64,000 nt of DNA from a virus (IMGVR_UViG_3300021091_000016), one strand, 5' to 3'. Positions 1-17,205 are shown, counted from the first letter of the stretch. The notes: generated from the letters alone by a model not told the origin. Program-made: numbers and translations.

Positions 1-6
1 GGGCAG

Positions 7-813
7 TTGCTTGCCTTGCTTGTGTCAATGATTATCCTATGGGAGATTCTCCCTGGGGTATTCTTACCCTTGTCTTCATTTTGCTTCCTCCTTTACAAGA
101 GGATCGATGAAGATGACCCTGAGTACAGTTATGTGAAAGGTTGGGGGTATAGCTTCTTGGTGCTATCCCTGATGTATCACGGCTGCCAACCCCAACGCGT
201 CCCTCTAAATCTGCCTGGCAAAACAATTCAAGAATCTTTTGAGTTCAATGACTACTTGCTTTCCAAGCAAGAGCTCTTGACTCATTACAAGAGCAATTGG
301 AAAGTTACGCGTGGATTGAATTTGGAGAGGAATCTCAAAGCGGATATTCTAGAGCATCCCGCTCGAAAATACCTGTTAGAGAATCCAGCCGTGTGTGTCT
401 TGCATGTAGGCGAACTGTCCAGCCTGGACTTCGCTACATATAGGACCAACAGTTTGTTGCTGAGTGTCCCACAAGCCTTCTATTCCAATAGGAGGTTTAC
501 CTGTCGAATTGCCATTGTCTACGGACATGGTGATTCCAAGGGTGGGATTCACGGACATTTAACGCATGCTCTTAACGGTGAACCCACGAGGTTTACTGAG
601 GAAGAGCTAAGACTGGCTTACCCCCAGTTAGAGTTAATGTTCGTGAAATGTAGGGGTGGTCGTAGCTATGACTACAGCTATCCCCTATACGCTCAAGATG
701 GGAGCTTCTTTACAGCCGAAGAAGGCCAGTCCACCTATGGTGACTGGTTCTTTGAGGCTTGGAAAAGGAGGGCCCTGAAGCAATTCTTTGACCTTTACAG
801 GTACGAGGAATAA
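7..813 (+). CDS. hypothetical membrane-anchored protein (start uncertain, may extend off the window)
   Basis: 268-aa ORF with hydrophobic N-terminal segments. Confidence 0.6.
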   Translation: MLALLVSMIILWEILPGVFLPLSSFCFLLYKRIDEDDPEYSYVKGWGYSFLVLSLMYHGCQPQRVPLNLPGKTIQESFEFNDYLLSKQELLTHYKSNWKVTRGLNLERNLKADILEHPARKYLLENPAVCVLHVGELSSLDFATYRTNSLLLSVPQAFYSNRRFTCRIAIVYGHGDSKGGIHGHLTHALNGEPTRFTEEELRLAYPQLELMFVKCRGGRSYDYSYPLYAQDGSFFTAEEGQSTYGDWFFEAWKRRALKQFFDLYRYEE

Positions 814-850
814 ATAACAAAACAGGGGTAGCGTCCCTTTAAGCCACGCC

Positions 851-906
851 ATGGTCTACAGGGTTGTCCCTGTACTGATGATGGGCCAATTGAGGCCCGA
901 AACCAT
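851..906 (+). ncRNA. type III hammerhead ribozyme HH1
   Basis: ATGG-TC^ TACAGGG/CCCTGTA (stem I), CTGATGA, extra T, GGGCC/GGCCC (stem II), GAAA-CCAT; predicted cut after C856. Confidence 0.9.
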
Positions 907-985
907 TTAACTGTAATAGTGCTTTCTATTCAGCACTTAAATATGAATATAAGCAAAATGGGTCTAATCTCATCCAATCTATCAA

Positions 986-1048
986 TGACAAGATACATAG
1001 CGTTCGATGCTATGCTGATGAGACCTAATTCGGGGTCGAAATCTGTCA
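986..1048 (+). ncRNA. type III hammerhead ribozyme HH2
   Basis: TGACAAGA-TA^ CATAGC/GCTATG, CTGATGA, GACC/GGTC, GAAA-TCTGTCA; predicted cut after A995. Confidence 0.9.
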
Positions 1049-1161
1049 AGAGATATCTAAAAAACATTTCTCATCAATACTGGTGGATTAACCGCTTAAT
1101 GAATCAAGCTTAGAGCCTCAGCTGCTCTATATTTCTCTTGGTTTATTTTTAATCCTGTAGT

Positions 1162-1170
1162 GACGAGACG
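1162..1170 (+). promoter_or_regulatory. GACGAGACG motif, putative phage RNAP promoter
   Basis: Repeated 9-mer downstream of a hairpin/T-tract and upstream of RBS AAGGAG and ATG 1198. Confidence 0.6.
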
Positions 1171-1197
1171 TCAAAGCCGACATAAAAGGAGATTCTT

Positions 1198-1971
1198 ATG
1201 TCAAATTGTAAACGAGGGATATTCCCTCAAGTCTGGCCAGCACAACTGGCTAATCCAGCTGGTTGCTGGAAAAGTGTTAAGGTGGAGCGTGCTCCATCAG
1301 TTTTACCAATGATTGTTTTAATGATTGTTGGTATCCTTGGTTTAATTTTGGGTTCATTCCTGGTGGAACCTAAAGCTACTCCTTTTTCAGGCTTGCAAAT
1401 CTGTAAGCCACAGCCTCAACCCATTCCTCAGCCTCAGCCTGAACCTGAACCTCAGATTGAGCCACAGCCTGAGCCTAAAGCCGAACCTAAAACCGAAGTT
1501 AAACCTAACCTAATTGATGCTGCTATCGCTGTAGCAAAAGCGCAAGAGTTTGTTTCCTCGTCTAACGAGGAGACTATGCGTTTGAGTTTGCAAACCGCAA
1601 TTGAACACTGGGAGTCTCTAGGGGAAACCCAAGATGACATCCAAAACCTAGTAGCGCTATATTACGTGGAAACACGTTATGGCGTGAAAGGGAAGATTTG
1701 CAGGGACGATACTGGCGCTTGTGGTCATTTCCAGATTGTCCCAAAGGTGTGGAAAAAGTTATTCGGCCAGCTCAAAGATGATATCGAGTCTCAAGCAGAA
1801 ATGCTTATCGATATTAGGGAACACCTAAAGACATATAGCGCTGATAGGTGGAAGGCTTATTATGCGCTATCATTCAAAGGTGCTCAAGCCGCTATCAAAA
1901 GCGGTAAATTGAGTGCCTATGAAGTAAGAAACAATAAAATTGAGAGCGAAATAAAGGCTCTCTTAAAATAA
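1198..1971 (+). CDS. membrane-anchored lytic transglycosylase/lysozyme-fold protein with PQ/PE linker
   Basis: TM helix, PQPEPE repeats, SLT-like YVETRYG...GACGHFQI motif. Confidence 0.6.
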   Translation: MSNCKRGIFPQVWPAQLANPAGCWKSVKVERAPSVLPMIVLMIVGILGLILGSFLVEPKATPFSGLQICKPQPQPIPQPQPEPEPQIEPQPEPKAEPKTEVKPNLIDAAIAVAKAQEFVSSSNEETMRLSLQTAIEHWESLGETQDDIQNLVALYYVETRYGVKGKICRDDTGACGHFQIVPKVWKKLFGQLKDDIESQAEMLIDIREHLKTYSADRWKAYYALSFKGAQAAIKSGKLSAYEVRNNKIESEIKALLK

Positions 1972-2012
1972 AATAACAATCATAAATACTAATACTAATT
2001 ATAATAACTAAA

Positions 2013-2070
2013 TCTTATATAGAGGGTTTCTCCCTCTACTGATGAGGCCTAATTGACGGCCGAAATAAGA
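2013..2070 (+). ncRNA. type III hammerhead ribozyme HH3
   Basis: TCTTA-TA^ TAGAGGG/CCCTCTA, CTGATGA, GGCC/GGCC, GAAA-TAAGA; predicted cut after A2019. Confidence 0.92.
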
Positions 2071-2131
2071 ACATCAGTTTGTATCATATCTTTTCTGTCA
2101 TTCTCGCTGTGAATAAATAAATAAGACATTA

Positions 2132-2156
2132 ACAAGACTTTCATTAGTCTTTTTTT
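2132..2156 (+). terminator. intrinsic terminator-like hairpin
   Basis: AAGACT-TTCATT-AGTCTT followed by a T run. Confidence 0.55.
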
Positions 2157-2183
2157 GTGCTTCATTTTTTAAACACCTGTAAT

Positions 2184-2192
2184 GACGAGACG
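2184..2192 (+). promoter_or_regulatory. GACGAGACG motif
   Basis: Context CCTGTAATGACGAGACG after terminator. Confidence 0.6.
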
Positions 2193-2197
2193 ATTTC

Positions 2198-2243
2198 AAC
2201 TCTAGCATGGCGCATTTTCTAGGTTCGATTCCTAGATAGAGTT
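2198..2243 (+). ncRNA. tRNA-like minihelix (acceptor stem + T-arm only)
   Basis: AACTCTA/TAGAGTT 7-bp stem stacked on CTAGG-TTCGATT-CCTAG T-arm. Confidence 0.55.
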
Positions 2244-2360
2244 TTAGACCAATTATGGTCGAGCTGGGTTTAGTACAACCCTCCAAAAGTACTCTTAAGC
2301 TAATACAATTCCGTATAAAGCTTTCGTATTTTAACAATCCCAATGTAAGGAGAATGCATC

Positions 2361-2696
2361 ATGGGAAAGTTCAATTTCAAAATTAACAAAGCCATCAAGG
2401 CTGAGTTGATTACACGAGGGTTGTTACCCTTATTCGTTAAGGCCGTAAAAGGTCTGGTAAATCAAGGCGTCGTTGTCACTGACAACAGTAGCGTCTTGTT
2501 GGCTCTTATTTCCTTCATGAAGGATAATAAAGGGTTTTTCACAAGAAAGCAATTGCTAGTAGTGTTGCTAGCATTGTTCCAAAAAGCGAGCTTTCTCTGT
2601 AGGACCGGTTGGTCCGCAGGTGGAGAAAGCTTCCTCGTTGACACAGAGAATGGGACTCTCTATGTCAATCTAAGCCAAGTCCAATTCTACTTCTAG
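2361..2696 (+). CDS. hypothetical protein
   Basis: 111-aa ORF with AAGGAG RBS. Confidence 0.75.
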   Translation: MGKFNFKINKAIKAELITRGLLPLFVKAVKGLVNQGVVVTDNSSVLLALISFMKDNKGFFTRKQLLVVLLALFQKASFLCRTGWSAGGESFLVDTENGTLYVNLSQVQFYF

Positions 2697-2990
2697 TAGA
2701 GAAAGGTAGCTATCATGCTAATTGATTCGTCCTAAACGAATTTGCGTCTAAAGTGCAGGTGTAATTCCTGTTAATCCCAAACCCCCAAACCCCAACCCTC
2801 ACCCAATGGAGATTATTATGGATACGTCCTAAAATCCCAGAGAGATGCTATTCGTTAGCTTAAACATCTCTCTTAACGCAAGCTAACAAGCGCACACGTC
2901 CCGTGGCTATCCAATAGCCATTACCCGAAGCCCAGAACGTCAACCCTCTCATTCACCTGTTTTGTCTGTCACCATTCTCCTATATATCGG

Positions 2991-3030
2991 ATAAGCCAAA
3001 GCGCTTCGGCGTGGTCTTGGTTTATTTTTT
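2991..3030 (+). terminator. intrinsic terminator-like hairpin
   Basis: ATAAGCCAA...GCGC-TTCG-GCGT...TTGGTTTAT then T run. Confidence 0.55.
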
Positions 3031-3056
3031 CCGCTATATATTTTGTGACTTGTAAT

Positions 3057-3085
3057 GACGAGACGAAAAATGACGAGACGAGACG
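3057..3085 (+). promoter_or_regulatory. tandem GACGAGACG motifs upstream of the RNAP gene
   Basis: Copies at 3057, 3072 and an overlapping copy at 3077. Confidence 0.65.
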
Positions 3086-3127
3086 AACTCGGTAAAATCA
3101 ATTGTACAACTGCATAAGGAGATTACC

Positions 3128-6100
3128 ATGCAGCAAGTAACTATTAAGGGGATTTTTGACCCCATATACGACCGCAACGTAAGTTTGGGTCGTGACATTC
3201 TAGCTTTGGCGTTAAAAAACGTTAAAGCAATTGCTTCAACCCAAGCCAAGGTTCAAACCAAGGCTAATTTCAAGATTAAAGCTAAGGTTAAAACCAAGGT
3301 CCAAGCAGAAGTCGTACGCGCTGAAAGAGCTGCAGCTAAGGCTAAAGCTCGTAAGGGTTATGATGTAGCTAGAGCCGCTCTCTGTTACCTATTAGGTGGC
3401 GGAAAGATTTTCAAAGACACTTTAGAAGCAGCAAGACTGTTTCTAAGAGGTGGAGTTGAAGCTCTCGGCTTGAATGGCATGCCCAGTAACGATGCTGGTG
3501 TTTATTATGCCTCGAGCTTGAATGCTGTACAAATGGTGTTGGCTGAGAAAATCGGTTTACTCAGCAGACCAGGGAAAGCCTTAAGCTCTGCAGCAAATTA
3601 TGATCAATATCGTGATTTATTGGAGAAGGTAATTCATGATGCTTTTCCTAAGAACGGGTTACAGCTTGATGAAGTCCAAATGAAAAGGGAATGGTTTAAG
3701 AATCTAACTGGCACTGCCGATTTAGATTCTGCTATCGGAGACTTTTTGGATGATGCAAGAAGAGCTGTCATGAGTCTAGATTGGGTGGGTCTGGATAATG
3801 GGGGGCTTGCGGTAAGAGTGAGTGGTCGTTTGATTACGGTGCTCAAACCACAAGTCAACTCCTTAAGGAGAAAGAGCGAGAGCAAGGTTTCGAAGGCTGG
3901 GAGCTCTATTAAGTTCGATCAAACGAACAATAGAGATGGTTCTCAGCTAATTGGAGAGTTAGTGGTGCTCCCAACTGGAGTTAAGAGTGAAACAAAAGCT
4001 GAAGGTTATGTAACTGAATCAAACAGCGACACAACCTTTGGTGTAATCACAAAGGTAAACTCAAGCTGGAATTCCAGTTTATTCCCTCTTTGTGAGGCGT
4101 TTGGAATTCAAATTGACCCAATCAAAGACGTAATTAAGATTACGTCTAAGGACCTGACGGAGGGTAACAAATCTAGAGCAAACGAAGGTTTGTTGGCTTT
4201 AGGCTACCTTCCTGTTACGGAAGGTGTTTATCTAAGGGAAGAAATTTGGGAAAAAGTAATGGGTGTCTTTGCTAAAGTATTTGGTGAGCTCAAAGATATA
4301 AGAAGCTATGGTAGGAGCTTCATAAGCACCCCAGCCTTGACGGCGTTCAAGGAGTATCAAAACATCCCAGTATTCCTTGCTGGTGATGATTTGCTGGGGT
4401 GGGAAGGGAATGATGGTGCTGGGTTGGTAACCGCAGGTACCATCATGGATAAGGGTTTCCAATTTAGATATATTGGAAATGGGCGGTTCGGTAAGGGATT
4501 AATTGCTAGATCCCATTATTTAGTGAAGGAACTGGAAGGAAAGTATAGCTTGGTAAGCTACAAAGATGATCTTAAACCAAGCGAATTCAATAAGATTCAA
4601 GAGTGGTTAAGCGATCTCGCTTGCTCAACTGGGTATTCAATAGAAAGTGAAAATGGGGGGACTTATCATAAGGCATTAATTCTAACGCCTTCAACCCTCA
4701 AGGGAATCAATAAAAAGATTCCCAAAGGTGGAGAATTTTTCCAAGGGGATGTGAATAGATTGACAACGATTATCGGCAAGGATGCTGATAAGCAAAAAAC
4801 TAGTAATAACTGGCAAATCGCTCAGCTATTACAAGCGTTGTCAAACCCCTCTCAGGATAAGGGATTTCTTCAGTTGAAGGATCATTTCTTTAAGGCCTTG
4901 GATAAAAAGGTAGGAAAGGCGATTGAGAAAGGGTTAAATTTGAGGGACAAAGGTGGCAACATGGATCTAATCCAATTGGCCACTTTTTTCAGCAGTGAGA
5001 AATATGCTCATCTGTTGAATACCTTCAATACCAAGGCCGAAAGTCGTTATGTCAACATGATGACGTTCGGTGGGGATGGTGTCTATGGAAATGGTGTGAT
5101 CCTAAAAGCATTCAGCAACGCTCACAAGGATAAGCTGGTGCTTAACAGCGTGTTAACACGCACGCCAAACCAAGATAGTCAATCTGTCCAGCTGCAGGAT
5201 AAAATCAATCCGGCTAAGTTGAGAGAGGTTCTGGATAGGTTAAAGCTGAATGGTTGGAACCGTAGCACATTAAAGACCTCAGAGGAGATTGAGGTAATCA
5301 ATAAAGTACTTGGCAATTGGAGTGCTGAGGAATGTGATAGATTCTTAGAGTTTTTCAAGAATGTAATATCACCCCAAATCAAGGATGGTTTGATTTGGGT
5401 CTCCAGTAATCTGCAAGGTATGATTACAGGAGATAATGATGGCGATAGAGATATCATTACTGATGACCCCTTATGGATTGCCATGGGAGAACTGATAGCT
5501 CTCAATACGGATGAGCGTCCGGTGAAGGAGAGCTTAAAGGCCTTTGTGCTTAAAGCAAAGGTCATACATGGGGATGGTAACGAGGTCGAATTGATGGTGG
5601 GAATGATGGATGATGAAAGTAGGAAGCCTGAACTTCTGAAATGTCTCAACTATCTGACTGCTAAAAATAGTGGTCAATTGAATGTAGGAGCAATCACAAA
5701 TGGTGCTGCGATAGCAACCACCTATTTTGATCCTATATTTGATGAGGATGGGACGTTTAGGATGAAGGAATGGGTAAGAAGATACTTCTTTACTTGTTTC
5801 GACATTCAGCAAGTAAGTATCGACAGGCAGAAATATGCCTATGTCATCCCGTCGTTGAGATACTTCCATCTCAATAAGGGTTTTTATCTACTTGATAATG
5901 GGAATGCCTTAATCATCCCAGGGTTAAGCTTTGTACCTGCGGGTATGCACAAGCTCAAACAAGTCCAGGGTGGACTTAAGGATGAGACGGAGGCAATCGA
6001 ATTTTTCAAGAAGGAATTTGGAAATTTTGAAGATGGCATAGAACATATGCCAGATCTAGAGCTGGGTGCAAAGCAAGTACAGATCACGGACCCCGTGCAA

Positions 6101-8659
6101 GGGTTTAGCGTGATTGGTGTGTACACATGGGCGCAATTTGTGCTCATGAGCTTCAAGCTTTGCGAAGCTCTAGGCGTGGATGAAATGAAATGGGGAGAGG
6201 TGTATGAGAAGCTCCTGACATCGCAAGATTTTGTTGGTTTCTTTAACGCAGATGGCAGGGATAAAGCAGGGCTTGCAACAAACTTAATTACTCTCTTGGA
6301 TGATTTAGTAGAGGTAAATGATCCTGCAAAGTCTTTGTTGGAGTTAACCCTAATCAGCAAAAAGGATATGTTGGGGTGGTTGGATGACGCAAATGCTATA
6401 AATCGTCCAGCACATATGCAACTCATCAAAGACAAAATTGATGGGATTGTGTTAAGTGCCTTGGATGATTGTAATATCAAAGCTCCTGATGTCAAGGACT
6501 TAGAAGCAGCGTTCCATACCGCTATAGGATCTCAATATGAGAGTTTAAGCTTCATCACCAACTATGAGGGTCATCAGATTGATCCTCAAGCCCACATGCG
6601 TGTCTTTAGTGATGCGCTAGCTAAGGCCAAAGAGGTCATGGCAAGAGAGGCAGAGGGTACTGCACAGAGCGTGAGGAAGCAGAGCTCTGCAGATAGCAGT
6701 ACTAAGGTCCTCTCTAAGGTAGCCAGCGCCTTTGGTGAAGCCTGGTATTTGGGTGGAGAGAGGGTAAGTGAGGAGGAGAAGGTGATGCAGAGTTTCTCTA
6801 ATAGTGTCTCGAAAGCACTATTGAACTCACAGGTCAATACAGCTAGCCGTAAGGATTATCTGGATAGATTTGAAGAAGCTGTTCAAAAGACAGCTTCTCA
6901 CGTCGTACTTAACGCAAATAAGTATGATAATGTGGGTGAGTTTATTGCATTCCTTGCGGAATGCATGGAGGCAATTGGAGAAGCAAGAACCAATACAGAT
7001 CGTTTAGATTTTCATGGTGAAAACCTAAAGGTGGATCTTATTGCTTTCTTCAATAAGCTGAACATGCATTCCGACCTCAAAACCCAAATAAATGCCTTAT
7101 ACAACCAGGTGTTTAAGAAGGGAGTAGAGGCTCTTTGGGACGGGATGGGGGACAAGGAAAAGGCTGTTCAAATTCTGGGACTTAAGCCAGGCACCAACCC
7201 AAGCTTTGATCAAAAGCTCTATTTGGTAAAGTTTAGTGCTTCGTATCAATTCTTTGAGAACAGCCTGGCTGTAATCAACAGATTGTATAAAGCAATAAGC
7301 TTTTATCCATCTGATTCTTCCTTGAAGGATAAGATGAAAGCTACAGTGCTGAGAAGCATTAAAAGCTTTGATAGAAACGCAAACCAATGGGTTGATGAGT
7401 TGGTAGTTGCTCCTGTAGCTGATTTCCAGCTCCCATTGGAATTCTGGGCTGAAAAGTTGATGGTTCTGCTTAACAGTGGAATCAATATCAACTTGAGGCT
7501 TAAGAAAGCTAAAAGGATCAAGACCCTAGATAACGGATATGATTTTTTCAAGAGTGATGATTGGGTCATGTACTCAAGCGTCATGCTGAAGTATCTGTCT
7601 GCTTTGGGGATTGATGTAAACCAATACCTCAGGACCGACCTAGAAATAGGTTTTGGTCATGTTTGGGGTTTAGCGGATTACCTCACTCTCTTACTAGGAG
7701 AGGCTGATACCAAGGGGAAGTTGGTAGGACATGCAGATGCAGCCGATGAGGCCGCCATTCAAGATATCTTTAAATCCAAAGGCTTAAATCTAGATGAATA
7801 TCGAAAGGCGCTTAATGTGCTCAAAGATAGCTCATTTAGCTTAAGTGGTGAGTGGAACCAAAAGATGAAAAATGGCGGAGAGACCCTTGTCGCAAATGAA
7901 ATGTATGTTGCGTTTCCTCTGATGTTAGTCAATAGCTTGGTTAAAAAATCAAGGAGAGATTCCAAACTTGACATCATGGATTATAATTATACCACAGCGT
8001 TGCGTGTTTCATTACACAATGCGTTGGGGGTAGAAATGGATAATTCAAGTGTTGGTGGGAATCAAGTTGATTTCGACCGAGTCCTAAAGGCTTTGTGGCC
8101 AGATAGAGTCCAGGAAGTCCTGGAATACTCTGGTTTTGGCCGTATTGCGTTTAGCAATTATCAGCCAAAAGAGTATATCTATGGCGGGTACCAGGTTGCT
8201 AGGTCTGTTGGTAAAGTCTTTGGTAAGGTCGCACAGGAGAAAACAGCTTACCAAAAGCTGAAAGAATCCAGACCTGTCGGGGGTTACGACCGCATAGAGT
8301 ACCAAGAGGAGTGGACCATGCAGACGCTCTTTGAAGCTCTAGCCCCTGAAGTACTTGAGAGTAACAAAAATTACAATCAAGACAAAAAGGGTTTAGTCTC
8401 TCTACTAGGTGTGATGTTGCTACAAAGCGATTTCATTACCTTAACAGAGATTGCCTTAGGGCTCAATAAGTTTGACGGTTCTGAAAGTCTTGTCGATCCA
8501 TGTTATTTCAGCTTGTACAGAAAAATCTCCAACAGAGATTTTCGAAGTTTACTGGCTTTGATTAAATATGGACAGCAAGGCAATAAGACCTTAAGCAAGT
8601 GGAATCTTCAGGTAAACCCAAAGCTTGACATCAAAGGCTTACTAAAAGCCTTCAATTAA
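3128..8659 (+). CDS. single-chain two-barrel (DPBB) RNA polymerase, YonO/QDE-1-like
   Basis: Ordered motifs FQFRY..G..GKG, TRTP, catalytic GDNDGD (DxDGD), VGAITN, SIDRQK match the cellular RdRP/YonO family order. Confidence 0.8.
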   Translation: MQQVTIKGIFDPIYDRNVSLGRDILALALKNVKAIASTQAKVQTKANFKIKAKVKTKVQAEVVRAERAAAKAKARKGYDVARAALCYLLGGGKIFKDTLEAARLFLRGGVEALGLNGMPSNDAGVYYASSLNAVQMVLAEKIGLLSRPGKALSSAANYDQYRDLLEKVIHDAFPKNGLQLDEVQMKREWFKNLTGTADLDSAIGDFLDDARRAVMSLDWVGLDNGGLAVRVSGRLITVLKPQVNSLRRKSESKVSKAGSSIKFDQTNNRDGSQLIGELVVLPTGVKSETKAEGYVTESNSDTTFGVITKVNSSWNSSLFPLCEAFGIQIDPIKDVIKITSKDLTEGNKSRANEGLLALGYLPVTEGVYLREEIWEKVMGVFAKVFGELKDIRSYGRSFISTPALTAFKEYQNIPVFLAGDDLLGWEGNDGAGLVTAGTIMDKGFQFRYIGNGRFGKGLIARSHYLVKELEGKYSLVSYKDDLKPSEFNKIQEWLSDLACSTGYSIESENGGTYHKALILTPSTLKGINKKIPKGGEFFQGDVNRLTTIIGKDADKQKTSNNWQIAQLLQALSNPSQDKGFLQLKDHFFKALDKKVGKAIEKGLNLRDKGGNMDLIQLATFFSSEKYAHLLNTFNTKAESRYVNMMTFGGDGVYGNGVILKAFSNAHKDKLVLNSVLTRTPNQDSQSVQLQDKINPAKLREVLDRLKLNGWNRSTLKTSEEIEVINKVLGNWSAEECDRFLEFFKNVISPQIKDGLIWVSSNLQGMITGDNDGDRDIITDDPLWIAMGELIALNTDERPVKESLKAFVLKAKVIHGDGNEVELMVGMMDDESRKPELLKCLNYLTAKNSGQLNVGAITNGAAIATTYFDPIFDEDGTFRMKEWVRRYFFTCFDIQQVSIDRQKYAYVIPSLRYFHLNKGFYLLDNGNALIIPGLSFVPAGMHKLKQVQGGLKDETEAIEFFKKEFGNFEDGIEHMPDLELGAKQVQITDPVQGFSVIGVYTWAQFVLMSFKLCEALGVDEMKWGEVYEKLLTSQDFVGFFNADGRDKAGLATNLITLLDDLVEVNDPAKSLLELTLISKKDMLGWLDDANAINRPAHMQLIKDKIDGIVLSALDDCNIKAPDVKDLEAAFHTAIGSQYESLSFITNYEGHQIDPQAHMRVFSDALAKAKEVMAREAEGTAQSVRKQSSADSSTKVLSKVASAFGEAWYLGGERVSEEEKVMQSFSNSVSKALLNSQVNTASRKDYLDRFEEAVQKTASHVVLNANKYDNVGEFIAFLAECMEAIGEARTNTDRLDFHGENLKVDLIAFFNKLNMHSDLKTQINALYNQVFKKGVEALWDGMGDKEKAVQILGLKPGTNPSFDQKLYLVKFSASYQFFENSLAVINRLYKAISFYPSDSSLKDKMKATVLRSIKSFDRNANQWVDELVVAPVADFQLPLEFWAEKLMVLLNSGININLRLKKAKRIKTLDNGYDFFKSDDWVMYSSVMLKYLSALGIDVNQYLRTDLEIGFGHVWGLADYLTLLLGEADTKGKLVGHADAADEAAIQDIFKSKGLNLDEYRKALNVLKDSSFSLSGEWNQKMKNGGETLVANEMYVAFPLMLVNSLVKKSRRDSKLDIMDYNYTTALRVSLHNALGVEMDNSSVGGNQVDFDRVLKALWPDRVQEVLEYSGFGRIAFSNYQPKEYIYGGYQVARSVGKVFGKVAQEKTAYQKLKESRPVGGYDRIEYQEEWTMQTLFEALAPEVLESNKNYNQDKKGLVSLLGVMLLQSDFITLTEIALGLNKFDGSESLVDPCYFSLYRKISNRDFRSLLALIKYGQQGNKTLSKWNLQVNPKLDIKGLLKAFN

Positions 8660-8750
8660 CAATTAACACAAAACCCCCACATCGGGGCTACTAAAGTGAA
8701 TAGTTTAAGCTAATCATTTTAAAAGTCCCGTATGTGGGAGAAAGGTATTT

Positions 8751-9209
8751 ATGGACCTAAATGAATACAAAGCTTTCCTAGATGAGCTTAAACAACTAGG
8801 GGTTGAAGAATATATCATGGCGGATATCTTGTTCGAAAAAGGATACACTTCACCGTATCAGTTGGCACGTGCTGGTGTGTCAAGCGCGATTATACATGGA
8901 GTGAGGATTCTTATGTCACAAAAGGCTGCTAGCCAAACTGGCAGTCAGATAAATGTTACTATTGGGAATATTTATGTTCTTGATGGTAAGACTGACCTCA
9001 AAACAATGCTGGCTTTAGCTGGTATCAATGGGGTTGACCCAAAGCAGATAACTTCCTCGCCAAAAGTATCTGTTAAAGCTACCCCGGTAACACCAACTCC
9101 TAGCACAGTGGTGATACCTCCCCTCAAAGCTCCTGCTACATCTAATAAGTTCGCAAACCTCTCCAACGATGACGATGAGGATGATGAGACTGATTATGAT
9201 GACAATTAA
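8751..9209 (+). CDS. hypothetical protein, acidic C-tail
   Basis: 152-aa ORF with RBS. Confidence 0.75.
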   Translation: MDLNEYKAFLDELKQLGVEEYIMADILFEKGYTSPYQLARAGVSSAIIHGVRILMSQKAASQTGSQINVTIGNIYVLDGKTDLKTMLALAGINGVDPKQITSSPKVSVKATPVTPTPSTVVIPPLKAPATSNKFANLSNDDDEDDETDYDDN

Positions 9210-9214
9210 CGAAA

Positions 9215-9276
9215 GGAACTGATGAGCCTCCCGGGAGTGGGAGGCGAAACCTAGGGCTAACCCCCGATGGTCTTCC
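9215..9276 (+). ncRNA. type I hammerhead ribozyme HH4
   Basis: GGAA CTGATGA GCCTCCC/GGGAGGC GAAA CC-TAG..CGAT-GG TC^ TTCC; cut after C9272. Confidence 0.9.
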
Positions 9277-9388
9277 ATTGCTCCAACCCTTTTTATACAC
9301 ATACTATAGTGTTTCGATGCGGACTCCGCCTGAAGAAAACTCCACTATAGCAGATGGTATTCTAACACTTTTTTAAAGGAGTATAAAT

Positions 9389-9760
9389 ATGTTAGACACA
9401 GACAGTTTACTAGACGCCGCCCAGAAAGCTACTCTTGATATTCTTCCCGATGATCAAAAAGCAGTAATCAAGGCACTGTTAACAACGCAAGCCCAACTAC
9501 AAGCCAGGAATTTAATTCTCGGTGAGTTCAGCAAGGCAACGGCACTGGCACTTCCCTATGGGAAGGAAGTCAAGGCTTTAACGCATATTGTTAATACGCA
9601 AGCGGACCTAGCCACGCTAAGTGATTTTATCACAAAAGCAATGGCTTTAGGTTGTGGCTTCTCGCTAGTTATCCAAGCACCCCAAGGTGATTTGTTCCAG
9701 AAATGGAATAAAGATATCCACAAAGGTGTAGTTGGACTAAAATCCGAGCTTAGTAAGTAA
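9389..9760 (+). CDS. hypothetical protein
   Basis: 123-aa ORF with AAGGAG RBS. Confidence 0.75.
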   Translation: MLDTDSLLDAAQKATLDILPDDQKAVIKALLTTQAQLQARNLILGEFSKATALALPYGKEVKALTHIVNTQADLATLSDFITKAMALGCGFSLVIQAPQGDLFQKWNKDIHKGVVGLKSELSK

Positions 9761-9808
9761 GGGTTTTTAGGACCGGTTAGGTTCTTTTTTTCTAAACCTT
9801 GCAGTCGA

Positions 9809-9817
9809 GACGAGACG
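9809..9817 (+). promoter_or_regulatory. GACGAGACG motif
   Basis: CGAGACGAGACG after a T-tract. Confidence 0.6.
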
Positions 9818-9930
9818 GCAAAAATAGAGTCTACTTGTAAAAATCAGAATACCATCCGTGGAGCTTCACGTAAAAGAGCTAGACCTTGACTCGAGGTCGT
9901 CTTAACTGTTTTGCATCAAAGGAAACTATC

Positions 9931-10071
9931 ATGTTCTATTCAATAGAAATCGCAATCAAATATTTAAGCTGTCTCCCCTACAATGTTAACACTTCTGTTG
10001 ATGTTGTATTACTCGATAAAACCTTTTGCGTTAGTAAAAGATACGCAATCATAACTGTAAAGGAAGTCTAA
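9931..10071 (+). CDS. small hypothetical protein
   Basis: ATG 9931 behind AAGGA, in frame with track ORF 9886..10071. Confidence 0.5.
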   Translation: MFYSIEIAIKYLSCLPYNVNTSVDVVLLDKTFCVSKRYAIITVKEV

Positions 10072-10072
10072 A

Positions 10073-10219
10073 ATGAAGTTATTTACTGTATTATTAAATA
10101 ATGGTCAGGTAGAAAGTATTAAGTGCCGCGATCAACAAATGGTTGGCGGTATTATTTCGGAGCTCACAGGTGGTGAGTTATATGTAGTTGCCATTTTAAA
10201 TGAGCAACAATTGGGCTAA
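10073..10219 (+). CDS. small hypothetical protein (48 aa, not in track)
   Basis: MKLFTVLLNNGQVESIKC...QQLG*; AAGGA RBS; stop overlaps HH5. Confidence 0.6.
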   Translation: MKLFTVLLNNGQVESIKCRDQQMVGGIISELTGGELYVVAILNEQQLG

Positions 10220-10268
10220 CTGATGAGTTCTTAAGAACGAAACCTAGGGTAAAACCGATGGTCTTAGT
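10215..10268 (+). ncRNA. type I hammerhead ribozyme HH5
   Basis: GCTAA CTGATGA GTTC/GAAC GAAA CC-TAG..CGAT-GG TC^ TTAGT; cut after C10263. Confidence 0.9.
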
Positions 10269-10299
10269 ATAAACACAACACAACACAAGGAGATCAAAC

Positions 10300-10476
10300 A
10301 TGCTAAAGTTTGTTATCAGGCAATTAGAGGTACCAGATTGGGATCCTCTTAGGTGGGAAGTCGCGGTGTATAGGAATGGTGTCGAGGTGTATAATGATAT
10401 TGATACCAAGGAGAATCTCGTAGGTTTATTTGAACACTTTGTTCAGAAGGAGAATCAAAATGAGATTGGAGATTGA
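10300..10476 (+). CDS. small hypothetical protein (58 aa, not in track)
   Basis: MLKFVIRQLEVPDWDPLRWEVAVY...; AAGGAG RBS. Confidence 0.65.
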   Translation: MLKFVIRQLEVPDWDPLRWEVAVYRNGVEVYNDIDTKENLVGLFEHFVQKENQNEIGD

Positions 10477-10603
10477 AGTATGGGATAAGGAGCATTGGGA
10501 AGTTAAGGTTATGGATGAGAGTCAAGTCATGTATCATGACGTAATTTATTGGACTCAATTAGAGGGTTTAATTGCGGAATTGAAATTGAAATATAATTTT
10601 TGA
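10460..10603 (+). CDS. small hypothetical protein (47 aa, not in track), likely paralog of upstream ORF
   Basis: MRLEIEVWDKEHWEVKVM...; AAGGAG RBS; shared WEV-x-V...V-x-Y/Y-x-D pattern. Confidence 0.65.
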   Translation: MRLEIEVWDKEHWEVKVMDESQVMYHDVIYWTQLEGLIAELKLKYNF

Positions 10604-10801
10604 TGGGGCGCCATTATTACGCGGTCTCTTATTGTCTGGTCTTACAATAAAAGGCTATGGTAGTCAAGTTTGATTACCAGAATAGACCTATATATTTTTT
10701 AATATCTTGGATCGGCATCCAAGCGAAATTATACGCCGTAGACAGTGAAAGGTCGCATTAAACCTTTCTTTGTTAACAAGAGCAAAAATTAATGCCGTCC
10801 A

Positions 10802-10874
10802 GCCAACTGATGAGGACGTTAAACTTAGACCCTTGAACAAGGTCGAAACCTAGGGGAAACCCGATGGTCTTGGT
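10802..10874 (+). ncRNA. type I hammerhead ribozyme HH6 with 14-nt core insertion
   Basis: GCCAA CTGATGA [GGACGTTAAACTTA] GACC/GGTC GAAA CC-TAG..CGAT-GG TC^ TTGGT. Confidence 0.75.
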
Positions 10875-10949
10875 AGTTTAATAGTAGTATGTTGCTATTA
10901 TTGAATTGGTTTTTTAAAACCAATCTTTTTTTAAAACCCTTTCTTTTCC

Positions 10950-10973
10950 GACGAGACGTCACCTGACGAGACG
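10950..10973 (+). promoter_or_regulatory. two GACGAGACG motifs
   Basis: GACGAGACGTC at 10950 and 10965, after TTGGTTTT/AAAACCAA hairpin + T run, before RBS of 11000. Confidence 0.65.
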
Positions 10974-10999
10974 TCGCTGTACAATAGGAGATTTTTAAT

Positions 11000-11254
11000 A
11001 TGCAAGAATTTTTAAGTTTTGTTGAGAGCCAAAAACAAGTAACAAGAAACAGAAACTCTACAAATAGCATTGTTGAGAATGTTGCCAAGCTACTTGAAGC
11101 AAACATTACACATCTATTAAAGGATCATCATGCTATATATCAAATTTCCCCTGATCCATTAGAATATGGAAAAGTATTTATTAATAAGACAGTTTATCAA
11201 ATTGTAGATACTGAAAATAGAAAAGCATTATTAATTTATAATTTATATAACTAG
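11000..11254 (+). CDS. hypothetical protein
   Basis: 84-aa ORF, AGGAG RBS. Confidence 0.7.
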   Translation: MQEFLSFVESQKQVTRNRNSTNSIVENVAKLLEANITHLLKDHHAIYQISPDPLEYGKVFINKTVYQIVDTENRKALLIYNLYN

Positions 11255-11313
11255 CCAACTGATGAGACCTTTAGCATGGTCGAAACCTAGAAGTGATTCG
11301 ATGGTCTTGGTAG
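11251..11313 (+). ncRNA. type I hammerhead ribozyme HH7
   Basis: GCCAA CTGATGA GACC/GGTC GAAA CC-TAG..CGAT-GG TC^ TTGGT; cut after C11306. Confidence 0.9.
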
Positions 11314-11342
11314 CTTTAACCGTAACAAGAAGGAGACTCATT

Positions 11343-11648
11343 ATGAGTATTGTAGAAATAAATATTATTGCGGCGATTATTTGTATATGTATCGCAACAA
11401 TATATAACCTACTCACTGATTTTAAACGATTCAATGATGTAGCTGTAGTAGCATGGTCTATATTAGAAGTGCTGGGATTCAAAAGAGAGTACCATTGGAG
11501 CGGTAATATTATTGCATTCGTTCTTAACCAAGTAGTGAATGTAGTAGTATTTATGTATTTGCCAGGACTATTCCTAATCTGTGCTATATCCTATATTATT
11601 GTAGGATTAAATAGCATATCAGAGGAGTTGAATGCAAATGAGCTTTAA
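11343..11648 (+). CDS. hypothetical membrane protein
   Basis: AAGGAG RBS favours ATG 11343 over 11262 (which lies inside HH7); hydrophobic. Confidence 0.65.
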   Translation: MSIVEINIIAAIICICIATIYNLLTDFKRFNDVAVVAWSILEVLGFKREYHWSGNIIAFVLNQVVNVVVFMYLPGLFLICAISYIIVGLNSISEELNANEL

Positions 11649-11868
11649 TATTGCTTTATGTATCTTTTCATCCTGGTTGTTCGTAGACGAAATGCAATTC
11701 TTAAACGCAACACTTAACCAAACGCTTAGACTCGATATAAAGATTCTAATGCATATGATTACCTTAACTGTACTTTCAATGAATGCATCAATGATGCTAT
11801 CCATGCCACAAAGCTACACTCTATTCGGAGTAGTAGCTATCATAACCTATATCATCTACAAAGGATAA
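11632..11868 (+). CDS. hypothetical membrane protein
   Basis: Hydrophobic 78-aa ORF. Confidence 0.6.
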   Translation: MQMSFNIALCIFSSWLFVDEMQFLNATLNQTLRLDIKILMHMITLTVLSMNASMMLSMPQSYTLFGVVAIITYIIYKG

Positions 11869-11873
11869 CTGTA

Positions 11874-12200
11874 ATGTTAGAAGAACACTATCAAGGCTCA
11901 GCATTTAGAGAATGCCAAACCACTGACAATGAAATGTATTGTCAAACAAACAAATTTATTACTAGAGATGATAAGGTAATTGAGTATGTCGAAAGATATT
12001 ATAAGAAAACCTCATCGTTCTTGGTAATGTTCAATCCCTCAAATATCCCACTATTTGAGGATAGGGTCATGGTCTATGCAGAACAAATTCAATTTGCTAA
12101 GAACCTAGACATGGATATTAAATTTAAGAAGGATAAAAGACATCCAGATTTATATGTAGTACATATCGACCCAAAGAGTGAGATAAACACTACATGTTAG
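11874..12200 (+). CDS. hypothetical protein
   Basis: 108-aa ORF in a tight gene chain. Confidence 0.65.
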   Translation: MLEEHYQGSAFRECQTTDNEMYCQTNKFITRDDKVIEYVERYYKKTSSFLVMFNPSNIPLFEDRVMVYAEQIQFAKNLDMDIKFKKDKRHPDLYVVHIDPKSEINTTC

Positions 12201-12436
12201 ATTTGTATATTAGCTGTTGGATATTCAGCAGTATCTTTTTTATTGGTTATATATTGGTAAAGAGAGATGAGATAGAAGCTGTTAATGTGCCGTTTGATTT
12301 AGAATTTATTAAATCGGTAATAGGCTTTTACTTCATGTCATTCTTTACCTGGCATATGCTAGTGGCTCTATTAGTCACAGACCCAAAAGGATTTGATAAT
12401 GAAATTAAGAAATCAGTCCAAAACTACTCAAAATAA
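12194..12436 (+). CDS. hypothetical membrane protein
   Basis: 80-aa ORF, two hydrophobic segments. Confidence 0.6.
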   Translation: MLDLYISCWIFSSIFFIGYILVKRDEIEAVNVPFDLEFIKSVIGFYFMSFFTWHMLVALLVTDPKGFDNEIKKSVQNYSK

Positions 12437-12449
12437 AGGAACACAAAAA

Positions 12450-12830
12450 ATGAGCAATCAAGACACAACAACAGAGACTCCTAAGGTAGATACACCTAAG
12501 GTAGAAGCTCCAAAAGAAGAAACTCCCAAAGTGGAGACTCCTAAGACAGAAGTAAAAAGCTTTAATGAAATCTATAAGGACTTACCTAGATGGTCTAAGA
12601 TATTACTCTCGTTAGTAGTAATTAGTGCAATTTATAAGTTCGTCCCAATTGTGGAGCTATTGACATTGTTTTTCTGGGCTGTAATGGTTCCAGTAGTATT
12701 TCTATTTATGTTAGGCGTTATTAGTAGTGAGACCTATGATTCCATTTGTGATGGAATCACTGGTATTAAGAAAGCCGTCAAAACAAAGCTAGAAGAAGAA
12801 AAAACACAAGCTCCTCAGAATGCATCGTAG
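12450..12830 (+). CDS. membrane protein with ETPKV repeats
   Basis: AAGGA RBS before ATG 12450; TPKV repeats and two TM helices. Confidence 0.65.
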   Translation: MSNQDTTTETPKVDTPKVEAPKEETPKVETPKTEVKSFNEIYKDLPRWSKILLSLVVISAIYKFVPIVELLTLFFWAVMVPVVFLFMLGVISSETYDSICDGITGIKKAVKTKLEEEKTQAPQNAS

Positions 12831-12914
12831 TGCGTGTACTGAACACAACTACAGTCTTTTACCCCTAGAAAACCTAATCCCCCCTATCTCGAAAAGAGAG
12901 AAAGTACTTAACAA

Positions 12915-13478
12915 ATGTTTAGTAAAGTATCAAATGTAATCACAGTTTTTAAAGCATTTTGCCACAATCCAAGCATTCAAGGAGAATTGATGGACAGCTT
13001 AAGAAAGAAAGTAGTAGAAAGCTCAATGAATCTCATCACTGTATATAGTGCAGTAATTGATGAAAGACATAAGGTAATCGAGACTTTATCTAAATTAGAG
13101 GATACTGTTAATCTTATTGAGGAAAGATGGAACCTACATGTAACAGATGTAGCTACATATAAGAATACAAAGATTGGTAAAGCAGTAAAGGCAATTATTG
13201 AATCAGATTCTGAGATTGATAGCAGGGTAATTAATAAGCTAGAATCAGCAATCGACGATGTGAATCCAAGAAAAATTATCAATGTTTACAAGGCTTTAGA
13301 TACTGGTAGTCTCGAGAGAAGGCTTGATGCACTACAGGAACAATATGAGGAGATTCAAGGAATTAATGGTATTGCTGCTAGAGATACAGAGGTACTAGTC
13401 AAGCATCATATGCAACTAGTAGAGATGGTATTGGCAGAAAGGAAATGTGAATCCACACAAGAAGAATATAATTTTTAA
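12915..13478 (+). CDS. hypothetical coiled-coil protein
   Basis: 187-aa helical ORF. Confidence 0.65.
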   Translation: MFSKVSNVITVFKAFCHNPSIQGELMDSLRKKVVESSMNLITVYSAVIDERHKVIETLSKLEDTVNLIEERWNLHVTDVATYKNTKIGKAVKAIIESDSEIDSRVINKLESAIDDVNPRKIINVYKALDTGSLERRLDALQEQYEEIQGINGIAARDTEVLVKHHMQLVEMVLAERKCESTQEEYNF

Positions 13479-13720
13479 AAATATTTAAATATTTTTCTTG
13501 ATTTTCCGTTGTTACTTGTGTAATCTCAAATATGTGAGATGAGGTCGCAACGTTGCAGTTGCTTGGGTTGTTTGTGTTCAGTCCTAATTTATCGATTTTA
13601 TCGATACTTTAGGATTGCCTCTTGACTTAGTATACATAATATATGTATATATAAGTTATATACCCCCGACAGGGGGTAAGTCCTTCTGACTATAAAAGAA
13701 AAAAAGAAAAGAGATAAGAT

Positions 13721-13890
13721 GACGAGACGGCCCTAGTCTATTAGGTCAAATCAAACTCTAGTCTATTAGCAAACACTAAGGCCAAAACTCAGCTCGACTA
13801 GAGCTCACTCTATTGAGTCAAACTCAAATCAAACCCTAGTCTACTAAGGCAAACACTAAGTCAAACTCGAATCAAGCCATTCAAATCGAA
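13721..13890 (+). repeat. GACGAGACG followed by degenerate short direct repeats (CTAGTCTAYTA, GCAAACACTAAG, TCAAA)
   Basis: CTAGTCTATTAG at ~13733 and ~13758, CTAGTCTACTAA at ~13836; GCAAACACTAAG twice. Confidence 0.65.
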
Positions 13891-14013
13891 CGTAGCCTTT
13901 ATACTATTTTTTACGTCGTTGCTTAATCCCCAGAAATCCGTTAATCCCAAGATGCTCTGTAACGTCGACAATACCACACTATTCCCAATAACCAAGCAAG
14001 CGAGTAATACACT

Positions 14014-14250
14014 ATGCTATCCGAGCTTACAATCAACGGTAAAACACATTATTTTACCCGTACTGACTTTGACTCAGAGTCAAGAATGTTTCCATCTACA
14101 TTAGCTAGATTACTTAATAGAGGCTTTACTGATTTAGAAGTAATTAATCTATTAGGTGCTAGTGATGTTAGATATTGTGATGATTTTGTTCCCCCACCAG
14201 GGGGGTGGGATGAACAAATCCAAGATAAGGAAAATAAAGAATATGTCTAA
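14014..14250 (+). CDS. hypothetical protein
   Basis: 78-aa ORF. Confidence 0.55.
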   Translation: MLSELTINGKTHYFTRTDFDSESRMFPSTLARLLNRGFTDLEVINLLGASDVRYCDDFVPPPGGWDEQIQDKENKEYV

Positions 14251-16668: not shown

Positions 16669-16836
16669 ATGGTACCGATATCAAAAGAAGTATACAAACA
16701 AAGAATAAAAATCTGTACAGAATGTGAAAGCTACAATGCTACATTACATCAATGTAAAGAATGTGGCTGCCTACTTCTATTAAAAGCATTTTTAAAAATC
16801 TCTGAATGTCCATTGAATAAATGGCCAAAGCAATAA
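16669..16836 (+). CDS. small Cys-rich DUF6171-like protein (55 aa, not in track)
   Basis: YKQRIKICTEC...CKECGC...KA...CPLNKW. Confidence 0.7.
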   Translation: MVPISKEVYKQRIKICTECESYNATLHQCKECGCLLLLKAFLKISECPLNKWPKQ

Positions 16837-16845
16837 AGGACTAGC

Positions 16846-17205
16846 ATGAATTTTAAAGCATATTTGAAACAATTAACACCACTTGCGTTACTTAAGCTTG
16901 CCTTTCAAGACCACCTTGAGTCTTTAGGCTACAATAAAATTTCAGATACACTTTATATTCAGAATAATATCTCAATAGAGCTTCAAATGAATTCATTTGA
17001 ACCAACTATTGTTATACACGATAGGTCTACCAATACTGTTACTAGCTATTTATTCGAACCAAACATTATGTATAAGGACTCTGCAATCATTAAAACAGAA
17101 AGATTAGATGATGTATATTTCGTTGATGATTATATAGATCCAGTAAATGCATACACTCTATTGAAAATGATTACAGATAAAAAAGAGGAATTAGAATTAG
17201 AATGA
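16846..17205 (+). CDS. hypothetical protein
   Basis: 119-aa ORF, AAGGA RBS. Confidence 0.65.
   Translation: MNFKAYLKQLTPLALLKLAFQDHLESLGYNKISDTLYIQNNISIELQMNSFEPTIVIHDRSTNTVTSYLFEPNIMYKDSAIIKTERLDDVYFVDDYIDPVNAYTLLKMITDKKEELELE

Follow-up and report, generated by a model that had tools for sequence, protein, structure and literature searches.

Do the early spacers of this phage genome carry a class of small H-type pseudoknots, and do these serve as decoy or protective RNAs? The question is raised by IMGVR_UViG_3300021091_000016, a stretch of 64,000 nucleotides (nt) of viral DNA (the window; positions are counted from its first letter). The window is a phage-like genome with every gene on the plus strand, and all features of the window described here lie on that strand. 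Its first 11 kb contain short genes, the gene of an RNA polymerase of 1843 amino acids (aa), seven hammerhead-like motifs (HH) and GACGAGACG motifs. The polymerase carries the DNDGD motif of the two-barrel RNA polymerase type, the GACGAGACG motif is positioned after terminators, and none of the seven hammerhead-like motifs (0/7) reaches its own Rfam gathering score. The first-pass annotation proposed eight pseudoknots, numbered here #1 to #8 from 5' to 3', and the stem and loop strings of all eight are present, at or within 1 nt of where it had placed them. The reading favored here, at a probability of about 0.7, is that the eight are no single class: #4 is the conserved core of a noncoding element, #1 and #2 are conserved structures flanking the hammerhead HH1, and #3, #5, #6, #7 and #8 are unsupported as pseudoknots.

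Nine early spacers between 814 and 11341 (2,207 nt in total) were scanned for maximal stems with helices S1 and S2 of at least 4 base pairs (bp) each, a hairpin loop of at most 20 nt, a loop L1 of at least 1 nt and a loop L3 of 2-25 nt. The null consisted of 300 dinucleotide-preserving shuffles of the spacers. Watson-Crick H-type candidates numbered 70 in the spacers, among them #1, #2, #3, #4, #6 and #8, against 81.2±16.5 in the shuffles; when G-U pairs were allowed, the count was 1054 against 1001±103. The frequency is no higher than in the shuffles, and on this ground the notion that small pseudoknots form a numerous class fails. The accompanying caution was that short stems can arise by chance, and such stems are abundant, with 70 candidates in 2.2 kb. 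Only the extreme tail departs from chance, with the stacking sum of #4 (-28.6 kcal/mol) equalled in 1 of 300 shuffles. Hairpins abound in the real spacers, and a second test therefore held each of 85 of them fixed while shuffling its loop and 3' flank. This conditional test gave p of about 0.005 each for #3, #4 and #8, and of 0.08-0.2 for #1. Several linkers had been described as A-rich, and the linkers do contain 47% A against 31% in the spacers, for linkers that were picked by eye. Several candidates had also been placed next to hammerheads; this applies only to #1 (at 7 nt from where HH1 cleaves), #2 and #8, and #4 has its nearest hammerhead about 820 nt away. As to the statement that topology is conserved and sequence is not, both helices of #4 covary over three lineages, the topology of #1 and #2 is kept in relatives, and the second helix of #3 is absent in relatives.

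The comparisons of #4 cover three lineages and five sequences. Lineage A is the window, lineage B consists of L001 and L032, and lineage C of L076 and L047. L001/L011 is a syntenic IMG/VR contig (polymerase 35% identical) found by an alignment query of viral contigs. A double-promoter pattern in metagenomes yielded L032, a variant of the L001 lineage, the third lineage L076 and L047 (polymerase about 25% identical), and L075, a close relative of the window that covers 10700-11300.

Candidate #4 (2839-2887) is an H-type arrangement of 9+8 bp. S1 pairs 2839-2847 with 2865-2873 and has a conserved core of 6 bp (2842-2847 with 2865-2870); S2 pairs 2854-2861 with 2880-2887. In the window the loops L1, L2 and L3 measure 6, 3 and 6 nt, L3 being 9 nt on the 6-bp S1 core, and the helices read (AGA)GAGATG/CATCTC(TCT) for S1 and GTTAGCTT/AAGCTAAC for S2. 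In the aligned columns of L001, S1 is GGTGTG/CACACC and S2 is (TT)GTTAATT/AATTAAC(AA), with 6 and 9 bp and loops of 4, 4 and 9 nt. The matching place in lineage C holds S1 GGTATCTAG/CTAGATACC and S2 GCAGAT/ATCTGC (9 and 6 bp in L076, with loops of 9, 6 and 13 nt), stems of the same topology as in the window and of unrelated sequence. Between the window and L001/L032 there are three compensatory pairs in S1 and two in S2. Covariation of this extent was reached by 1 of 500 shuffles, and every slid control was lower; the covariation check is positive for #4, so that a lack of covariation does not apply to it. In each of the three lineages #4 is the top candidate of its local stretch of about 100 nt, and shuffles of the local stretch equalled the #4 homologues in 0/500, 3/500, 0/500 and 1/500 cases. 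The hairpin-fixed p values over the three lineages are 0.0044, 0.031 and 0.0054, those of lineages A and B not being independent, since part of S2 (GTTA...TAAC) is common to both. Loop lengths range over 4-9 nt (L1), 3-6 nt (L2) and 6-13 nt (L3), lengths that would accommodate S1 and S2 simultaneously in all three lineages. A nested alternative partner for the 5' strand of S1 occurs in L001 only, shows no covariation and was rejected. As judged by sequence comparison, #4 is predicted to be a real, conserved H-type pseudoknot, with 6-9 bp in S1 and 6-9 bp in S2.

The pseudoknot is embedded in an element about 340 nt long (2697-3040) that is noncoding and conserved and extends from the stop codon of a conserved 111-aa gene (2361-2696) to an intrinsic terminator. 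The element precedes the double GACGAGACG module (3057-3085), a double promoter motif of phage type that lies between the terminator and the 1843-aa RNA polymerase gene. The spacer 2697-3127 shares 70% nucleotide identity with L001 over 406 nt (E 2e-31), next to a polymerase with only the 35% protein identity given above. The order of parts is common to the three lineages: the stop of the gene of about 111 aa, a Shine-Dalgarno sequence with a short open reading frame (ORF), a C-rich tract with CCCCAACCC, a second Shine-Dalgarno sequence with ATG, the pseudoknot, a covarying hairpin, GAAGCCC/YAACC, the intrinsic terminator, two GACGAGACG motifs and the polymerase gene. This order, the conservation of sequence, and the covariation of both #4 helices and of the hairpin are direct observations. 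When lineages A and B were used to build a covariance model, it matched lineage C at the expected place with 28.6 bits (E ~1e-4) and 24.5 bits (E ~1e-3), scores that are somewhat inflated, the ends of the model having been set on motifs already seen to be shared. The same model finds no second copy of the element in the window. Rfam 15 gave no match at E≤1-10 in 2697-3127 or in the homologous places of L032 and L076, and the element has no match in GenBank phages.

Two mini-ORFs are predicted in the element from a reading of the sequence. Mini-ORF 1 (2715-2735) has 6 codons (MLIDSS) behind the Shine-Dalgarno-like GAGAAAGG; L001 and L032 have MRHKIDSS at the matching place behind an identical Shine-Dalgarno-like sequence, and in lineage C a Shine-Dalgarno sequence and ATG open an ORF of 18-37 codons there. 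Mini-ORF 2 (2818-2832) reads ATG GAT ACG TCC TAA behind GGAG, and its stop is 6 nt 5' of S1. Its counterpart in L001, ATG AAT ACA TCT TAA, ends 10 nt 5' of S1, the peptide being MDTS or MNTS in lineages A and B, and lineage C has AGGAG, ATG and an 11-codon ORF that enters S1. The mini-ORFs share a 16-nt direct repeat at their ends (2721-2736, ATTGATTCGTCCTAAA; 2818-2833, ATGGATACGTCCTAAA), and both peptides therefore have a D-S/T-S end. Between them lie a hairpin noted in lineages A and B (2755-2771), with 5 bp that are 100% paired in the window, L001 and L032, one G-U to A-U change and an invariant 7-nt loop TGTAATT, and a C-rich tract without any G (2776-2805), which includes CCCCAACCC and is found in all three lineages. 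Matches to CCCCAACCC with at most one mismatch concentrate at 2776-2798. On the 3' side of the pseudoknot, hairpin H (2904-2920) has a covarying stem that is paired in all three lineages (TGGCTA/TAGCCA, TCACCA/TGGTGA and AGGTTG/CAACCT). It is followed by the single-stranded motifs GAAGCCC, 7 nt and CAACC (2927-2945), exact in the window, L001, L032, L076 and L047, the second being generalised over the lineages as YAACC. The intrinsic terminator (2995-3030) is a TTCG-loop hairpin with a T run, and its place in the order is kept in all three lineages. The sequence CCGAAGC at 2924-2930 is complementary to GCTTCGG atop the terminator hairpin (3003-3009) in lineages A and B, and RNAalifold pairs the two. 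An anti-terminator formed by this pairing was considered and rejected, the complementarity being absent in lineage C. Also rejected were a coding element (lineages A and B and L047 carry stops in the C-rich tract, which is open in L076), an HDV-like or pistol ribozyme (the helices come in an unfit order, and Rfam gives no match) and a telomerase-like template (the window holds no G-rich complement).

Two other explanations of #4 bear on these data. It is very improbable that all candidates, #4 included, are chance complementarity in AT-rich, hairpin-rich spacers and that none is functional. Such an explanation agrees with the total count, which is not above the shuffles, with the abundance of short stems, and with the number of hairpins tested, as a few p values near 0.005 are expected among 85. 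It does not account for the presence of #4 at the matching place in three lineages with unrelated stem sequences, for the five compensatory pairs between lineages A and B, or for an element far better conserved around #4 than the flanking proteins are. Rather unlikely is the view that the #4 helices are mutually exclusive, #4 then being no pseudoknot but a switch between two states that is governed by ribosomes on mini-ORF 2. Each helix would be stable alone as a plain hairpin (-10.8 and -7.6 kcal/mol in the window, -11.1 and -5.2 kcal/mol in L076). In lineages A and B the mini-ORF stops 6-10 nt 5' of S1 and in lineage C it enters S1, so that translation would free the 3' strand of S1 together with the S2 strands. 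The covariation is the same for a switch and for a pseudoknot, and the loop lengths, which permit both helices together in all three lineages, argue for the pseudoknot.

As to its role, the leading guess is that the #4 element, placed ahead of the polymerase gene, serves as a control or insulator RNA sensitive to translation. It would act in cis at the end of the upstream transcription unit. Since the mini-ORF stops shortly before S1 or enters it, a ribosome terminating on or crossing mini-ORF 2 would melt S1 in every lineage, and the pseudoknot would thereby report the translation status of the RNA. The pseudoknot, the C-rich (Rho-loading-like) tracts and the terminator might together set the share of upstream transcripts that end, as opposed to entering the polymerase gene. 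Alternatively, it may bind a protein or act in trans through C-rich seeds, among other roles. A wider proposal, possible rather than probable, is that the element is a new class of phage regulatory RNA, sensing a ligand, a protein or the ribosome, or binding polymerase or Rho, which governs the hand-over from host transcription to the single-chain two-barrel RNA polymerase of the phage. Its setting would be a phage lineage in which hammerheads and tRNA-like minihelices also punctuate the early transcripts.

Several known systems resemble the element in part. Translational-operator pseudoknots, such as those of the T4 gene 32 leader and of rpsO/S15 and the alpha operon/S4 in Escherichia coli, are part of the leader of the gene they regulate and bind the product of that gene. 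They share with #4 an H-type pseudoknot beside a Shine-Dalgarno sequence and AUG, unstructured tracts and a proposed cis-acting role; the #4 element, however, comes after a gene and before a terminator. Attenuators of the tna and mgtA type combine a leader ORF with a Rho-loading site and are not known to have a conserved pseudoknot. The likeness here is that ORFs of very few codons adjoin C-rich, G-poor tracts ahead of a point of termination, whereas the #4 element has a conserved pseudoknot with an intrinsic terminator after it, and a role of Rho is hypothetical. Some H-type pseudoknots stimulate recoding, as in retroviral stop-codon read-through and -1 frameshift signals (reviewed in PMC8310308). 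In lineages A and B the #4 knot begins at the recoding spacing, 6-10 nt after a stop codon, but the ORF there is limited to 4 codons and is followed by no extended frame that is conserved, and the ORF of lineage C enters S1. The closest functional analogies would be with pseudoknotted translational operators and leader-ORF/Rho attenuators, although membership in either group is not claimable.

Candidates #1 and #2 lie on either side of HH1, a type III hammerhead that cleaves after 856. Pseudoknot #1 (824-849, 4+4 bp) ends 7 nt before the cleavage site. In L001 and L032 its S1 is invariant and its S2 changes from GCGT:ACGC to GTGT:ACAC, a single compensatory pair (C:G to U:A); one further change is compatible with pairing. 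Over these three sequences 96% of cells are paired, and the shuffle control was not significant (270/500); geometry-restricted shuffles gave p values of 0.03, 0.02 and 0.008 that are not independent. In L032 the structure precedes a different hammerhead, and it is absent in L076 and L047. The topology kept in relatives weakly suggests that #1 is a plausible pseudoknot. Candidate #2 (918-949) is a hairpin with a possible pseudoknot of 6+5 bp, located 13 nt after HH1, with its 3' strand at the Shine-Dalgarno position. L001 and L047 show covariation in the hairpin, and L076 and L032 lack it. When the geometry of the window was imposed in advance (L2 at most 1 nt, L3 6-10 nt), S2 had 6 bp in L001 (p 0.006) and 4 bp in L047 (p 0.075), for a Fisher p of 0.004. 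L076 has a strong Shine-Dalgarno sequence in place of the hairpin, and the genes after #2 in the window and L001 have none. With its topology kept in relatives, #2 may be called a plausible pseudoknot with moderate confidence, and it would belong to the 5' leader of the gene that follows, covering the would-be Shine-Dalgarno position. HH1 and HH2 flank a variable gene slot (window 856-996; L001 6113-6860; L047 7392-8190; L076 minus strand 3393-2912), which encodes 197 aa (L001), about 219 aa (L047) or about 105 aa (L076). The slot is nearly empty in the window, so that the excised RNA would be about 140 nt long with a 5'-OH and a cyclic phosphate.

By its position #1 would be the last structure of the upstream HH1 cleavage product, followed there by a 7-nt tail that bears a cyclic phosphate, and it may shield that 3' end or prop the short stem III of HH1. 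The first-pass annotation took the pseudoknots either for caps that keep exonucleases off the ribozyme-cut RNAs or for ToxI-like decoys that bind protein and counter host defence; both appear improbable. A cap agrees with the position of #1, the 3'-most structure that the upstream product would carry, with the pairing of #1 kept in L001 and L032 (in the latter beside a different hammerhead), and with #8, which ends 5 nt before HH6. However, #4, the best-supported knot, is remote from any ribozyme, with type I hammerheads the ribozyme body itself already forms the end of the upstream product, and the other type III hammerheads (HH2 and HH3) are without such an upstream knot; the cap is thus left with #1 alone, by position. 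Flavivirus exoribonuclease-resistant RNAs use a ring-like fold around the 5' end to block the 5'-to-3' exonuclease Xrn1. They resemble #1 as a pseudoknotted fold proposed to stop an exonuclease, but #1 would face 3'-to-5' enzymes, has only 4+4 bp, and gives no Rfam match of this kind. ToxI and its phage pseudo-ToxI mimic (PMC3475682) are likewise small RNA pseudoknots in a phage context. ToxI consists of tandem 36-nt repeats that are cut and bound by the neighbouring ToxN, whereas the candidates here have no array, no match and no nuclease neighbour. No tandem direct repeats of about 34-36 nt were found: Tandem Repeats Finder on 1-14100 gives periods of 5-15 nt only, and a direct-repeat search returned only promoter, terminator and hammerhead families. 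A Rfam search of 1-13000 at E≤10 gave no match, the early ORFs and flanking proteins have no family match in Pfam or PHROG, and no ToxN/AbiQ-family nuclease or other toxin-like gene was found beside the candidates. These results do not sustain the decoy as a ToxI mimic, although the RNAs may mimic a ToxI array of the host.

It is also unlikely that #1 is a folding aid for HH1, its second helix abutting and stacking on stem III (4-5 bp) so as to stabilise the ribozyme or shield it from upstream coding sequence. The 3' strand of the #1 S2 (846-849) is indeed 1 nt from stem III (851-854), the arrangement is kept in L001 and L032, and hammerhead-stabilising pseudoknots are common (PMC3088659). Those already described join loop I to loop II or a tail (Perreault et al. 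2011, PMC3088659) and do not involve the exterior of stem III, and HH1 occurs without #1 in L076 and L047. The described tertiary pseudoknots resemble the present candidates as knots of 4-6 bp beside hammerheads of phage genomes, several of which flank genes. An assignment of #1, #2 and #8 to these loop I-loop II pseudoknots was rejected, as their strands are wholly outside the ribozyme loops: #1 is 5' of stem III, #2 is 13 nt 3' of the ribozyme and #8 is 5' of stem I. Loops I and II are joined by none of the candidates.

The other five candidates are hairpins, or pairings on top of hairpins, to differing degrees. The hairpin of #3, placed at about 2265-2293, covaries in L001 and L032 and is missing from lineage C. 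No second helix was found in L001, where the best has 3 bp (p 0.79), and #3 is probably a chance pairing on top of a hairpin. Candidate #5 is a misread nested hairpin: its L1 is 0, its S1 clashes with a conserved long hairpin at 8676-8738, and its supposed S2 is a stem of that hairpin. RNAalifold with L001 gives the long hairpin 24 pairs, 6 of them compensatory and several G-U. It occupies the gap between the polymerase gene and the gene downstream, and in the window its 3' side touches the Shine-Dalgarno sequence of the latter. Candidate #6, at about 9857-9880, has 4+4 bp with the self-complementary AGCT, stands at chance level, and has no homologue in L001, which is without a homologous stretch; it is a chance pairing on top of a hairpin. 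Candidate #7 is a real hairpin of 7 bp with a 4-nt loop (10706-10723), kept in L075 with one compensatory change and two G-U changes, which argues for a plus-strand RNA. The proposed knot is sterically impossible, because all 4 loop nucleotides would be paired, leaving L1=L2=0. Candidate #8 (10747-10795, 7+7 bp) has an L1 of 1 nt, an L2 of 0 and an L3 of 20 nt, with a hairpin-fixed p of 0.0066. Both helices are identical in L075, where 3 substitutions fall in L3, and for this reason they carry no covariation information; #8 is conserved, uninformative on pairing and undecided. The HH6 of L075 (minus strand ~1230-1170, against 10801-10874 in the window) is without the 14-nt insertion of the window (10815-10828) between CUGAUGA and stem II.

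Several points count against the assignment of the eight candidates given at the outset. The #4 element is carried by the three lineages, or five sequences, only; the shared part of S2 and the choice of model ends reduce the weight of the p values and of the lineage C score, and the two #4 helices, on their predicted stabilities, could form alternately and not together. The mini-ORF meets the pseudoknot differently in lineage C, and the regulatory mechanism is an inference from sequence alone. For #1 the case rests on one compensatory pair, and in L001 the loop of #2 is palindromic, so that a longer plain hairpin competes with the knot. Conversely, a verdict of chance or undecided may be too harsh for #3 and #8, in view of their conditional p values of about 0.005 each.

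The search for relatives was carried out in several ways. GenBank phages contain no close relatives of the window by megablast, tblastn or distant blastn. Four relatives of the polymerase are present in the protein collection, of which P0002 and P0003 are 60% identical; the contigs encoding these two lie outside all comparisons. A locus search based on the polymerase gave nothing useful in viral contigs (with a single-protein query), metagenome contigs or genome contigs. The double-promoter pattern returned 119 loci from the metagenomes, mostly acidic coding repeats, with 4 true relatives. The patterns AACAAGCGCACA...CGTCCCGT and CCCTTTAAGC...GGTCTACAGG matched the L001 contig only, and CCCCAACCC...GAAGCCC...YAACC gave chance coding matches only in viral contigs and genomes, the L001 contig excepted. 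Eight other viral contigs with the hammerhead stem III motif are without the polymerase and yielded no homologous spacers. A tRNA-like minihelix was seen just after GACGAGACG in the window (2199-2241), in L001 (~8575-8618 and 16818-16856) and in L032 (minus strand, around 1607). Its parts are a 5-bp acceptor-like stem, a linker of 12-14 nt in which GG(C/T)G is conserved, and a T-arm whose loop, TTCGATT, is invariant. Three copies show covariation in both stems (CTCTA/TAGAG, GTCTT/AAGAC and CCTAA/TTAGG), and ARAGORN makes no call. The minihelix may be a processing signal for RNase P or RNase Z alongside the hammerheads. By eye, the sequence becomes markedly more AT-rich from around 11300, past the last hammerhead.

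The 'pseudoknots' of 4-5 bp spotted by eye in the AT-rich spacers occur at the chance rate and give no basis for a class of decoy or protective RNAs. What is new is a conserved, covarying pseudoknot, predicted within an uncatalogued structured RNA directly before an unusual phage RNA polymerase gene in an uncultivated phage group. The element is small enough for direct testing. If it does control read-through or the fate of the RNA, it would offer a new handle on how phages of this kind time the expression of their own polymerase.

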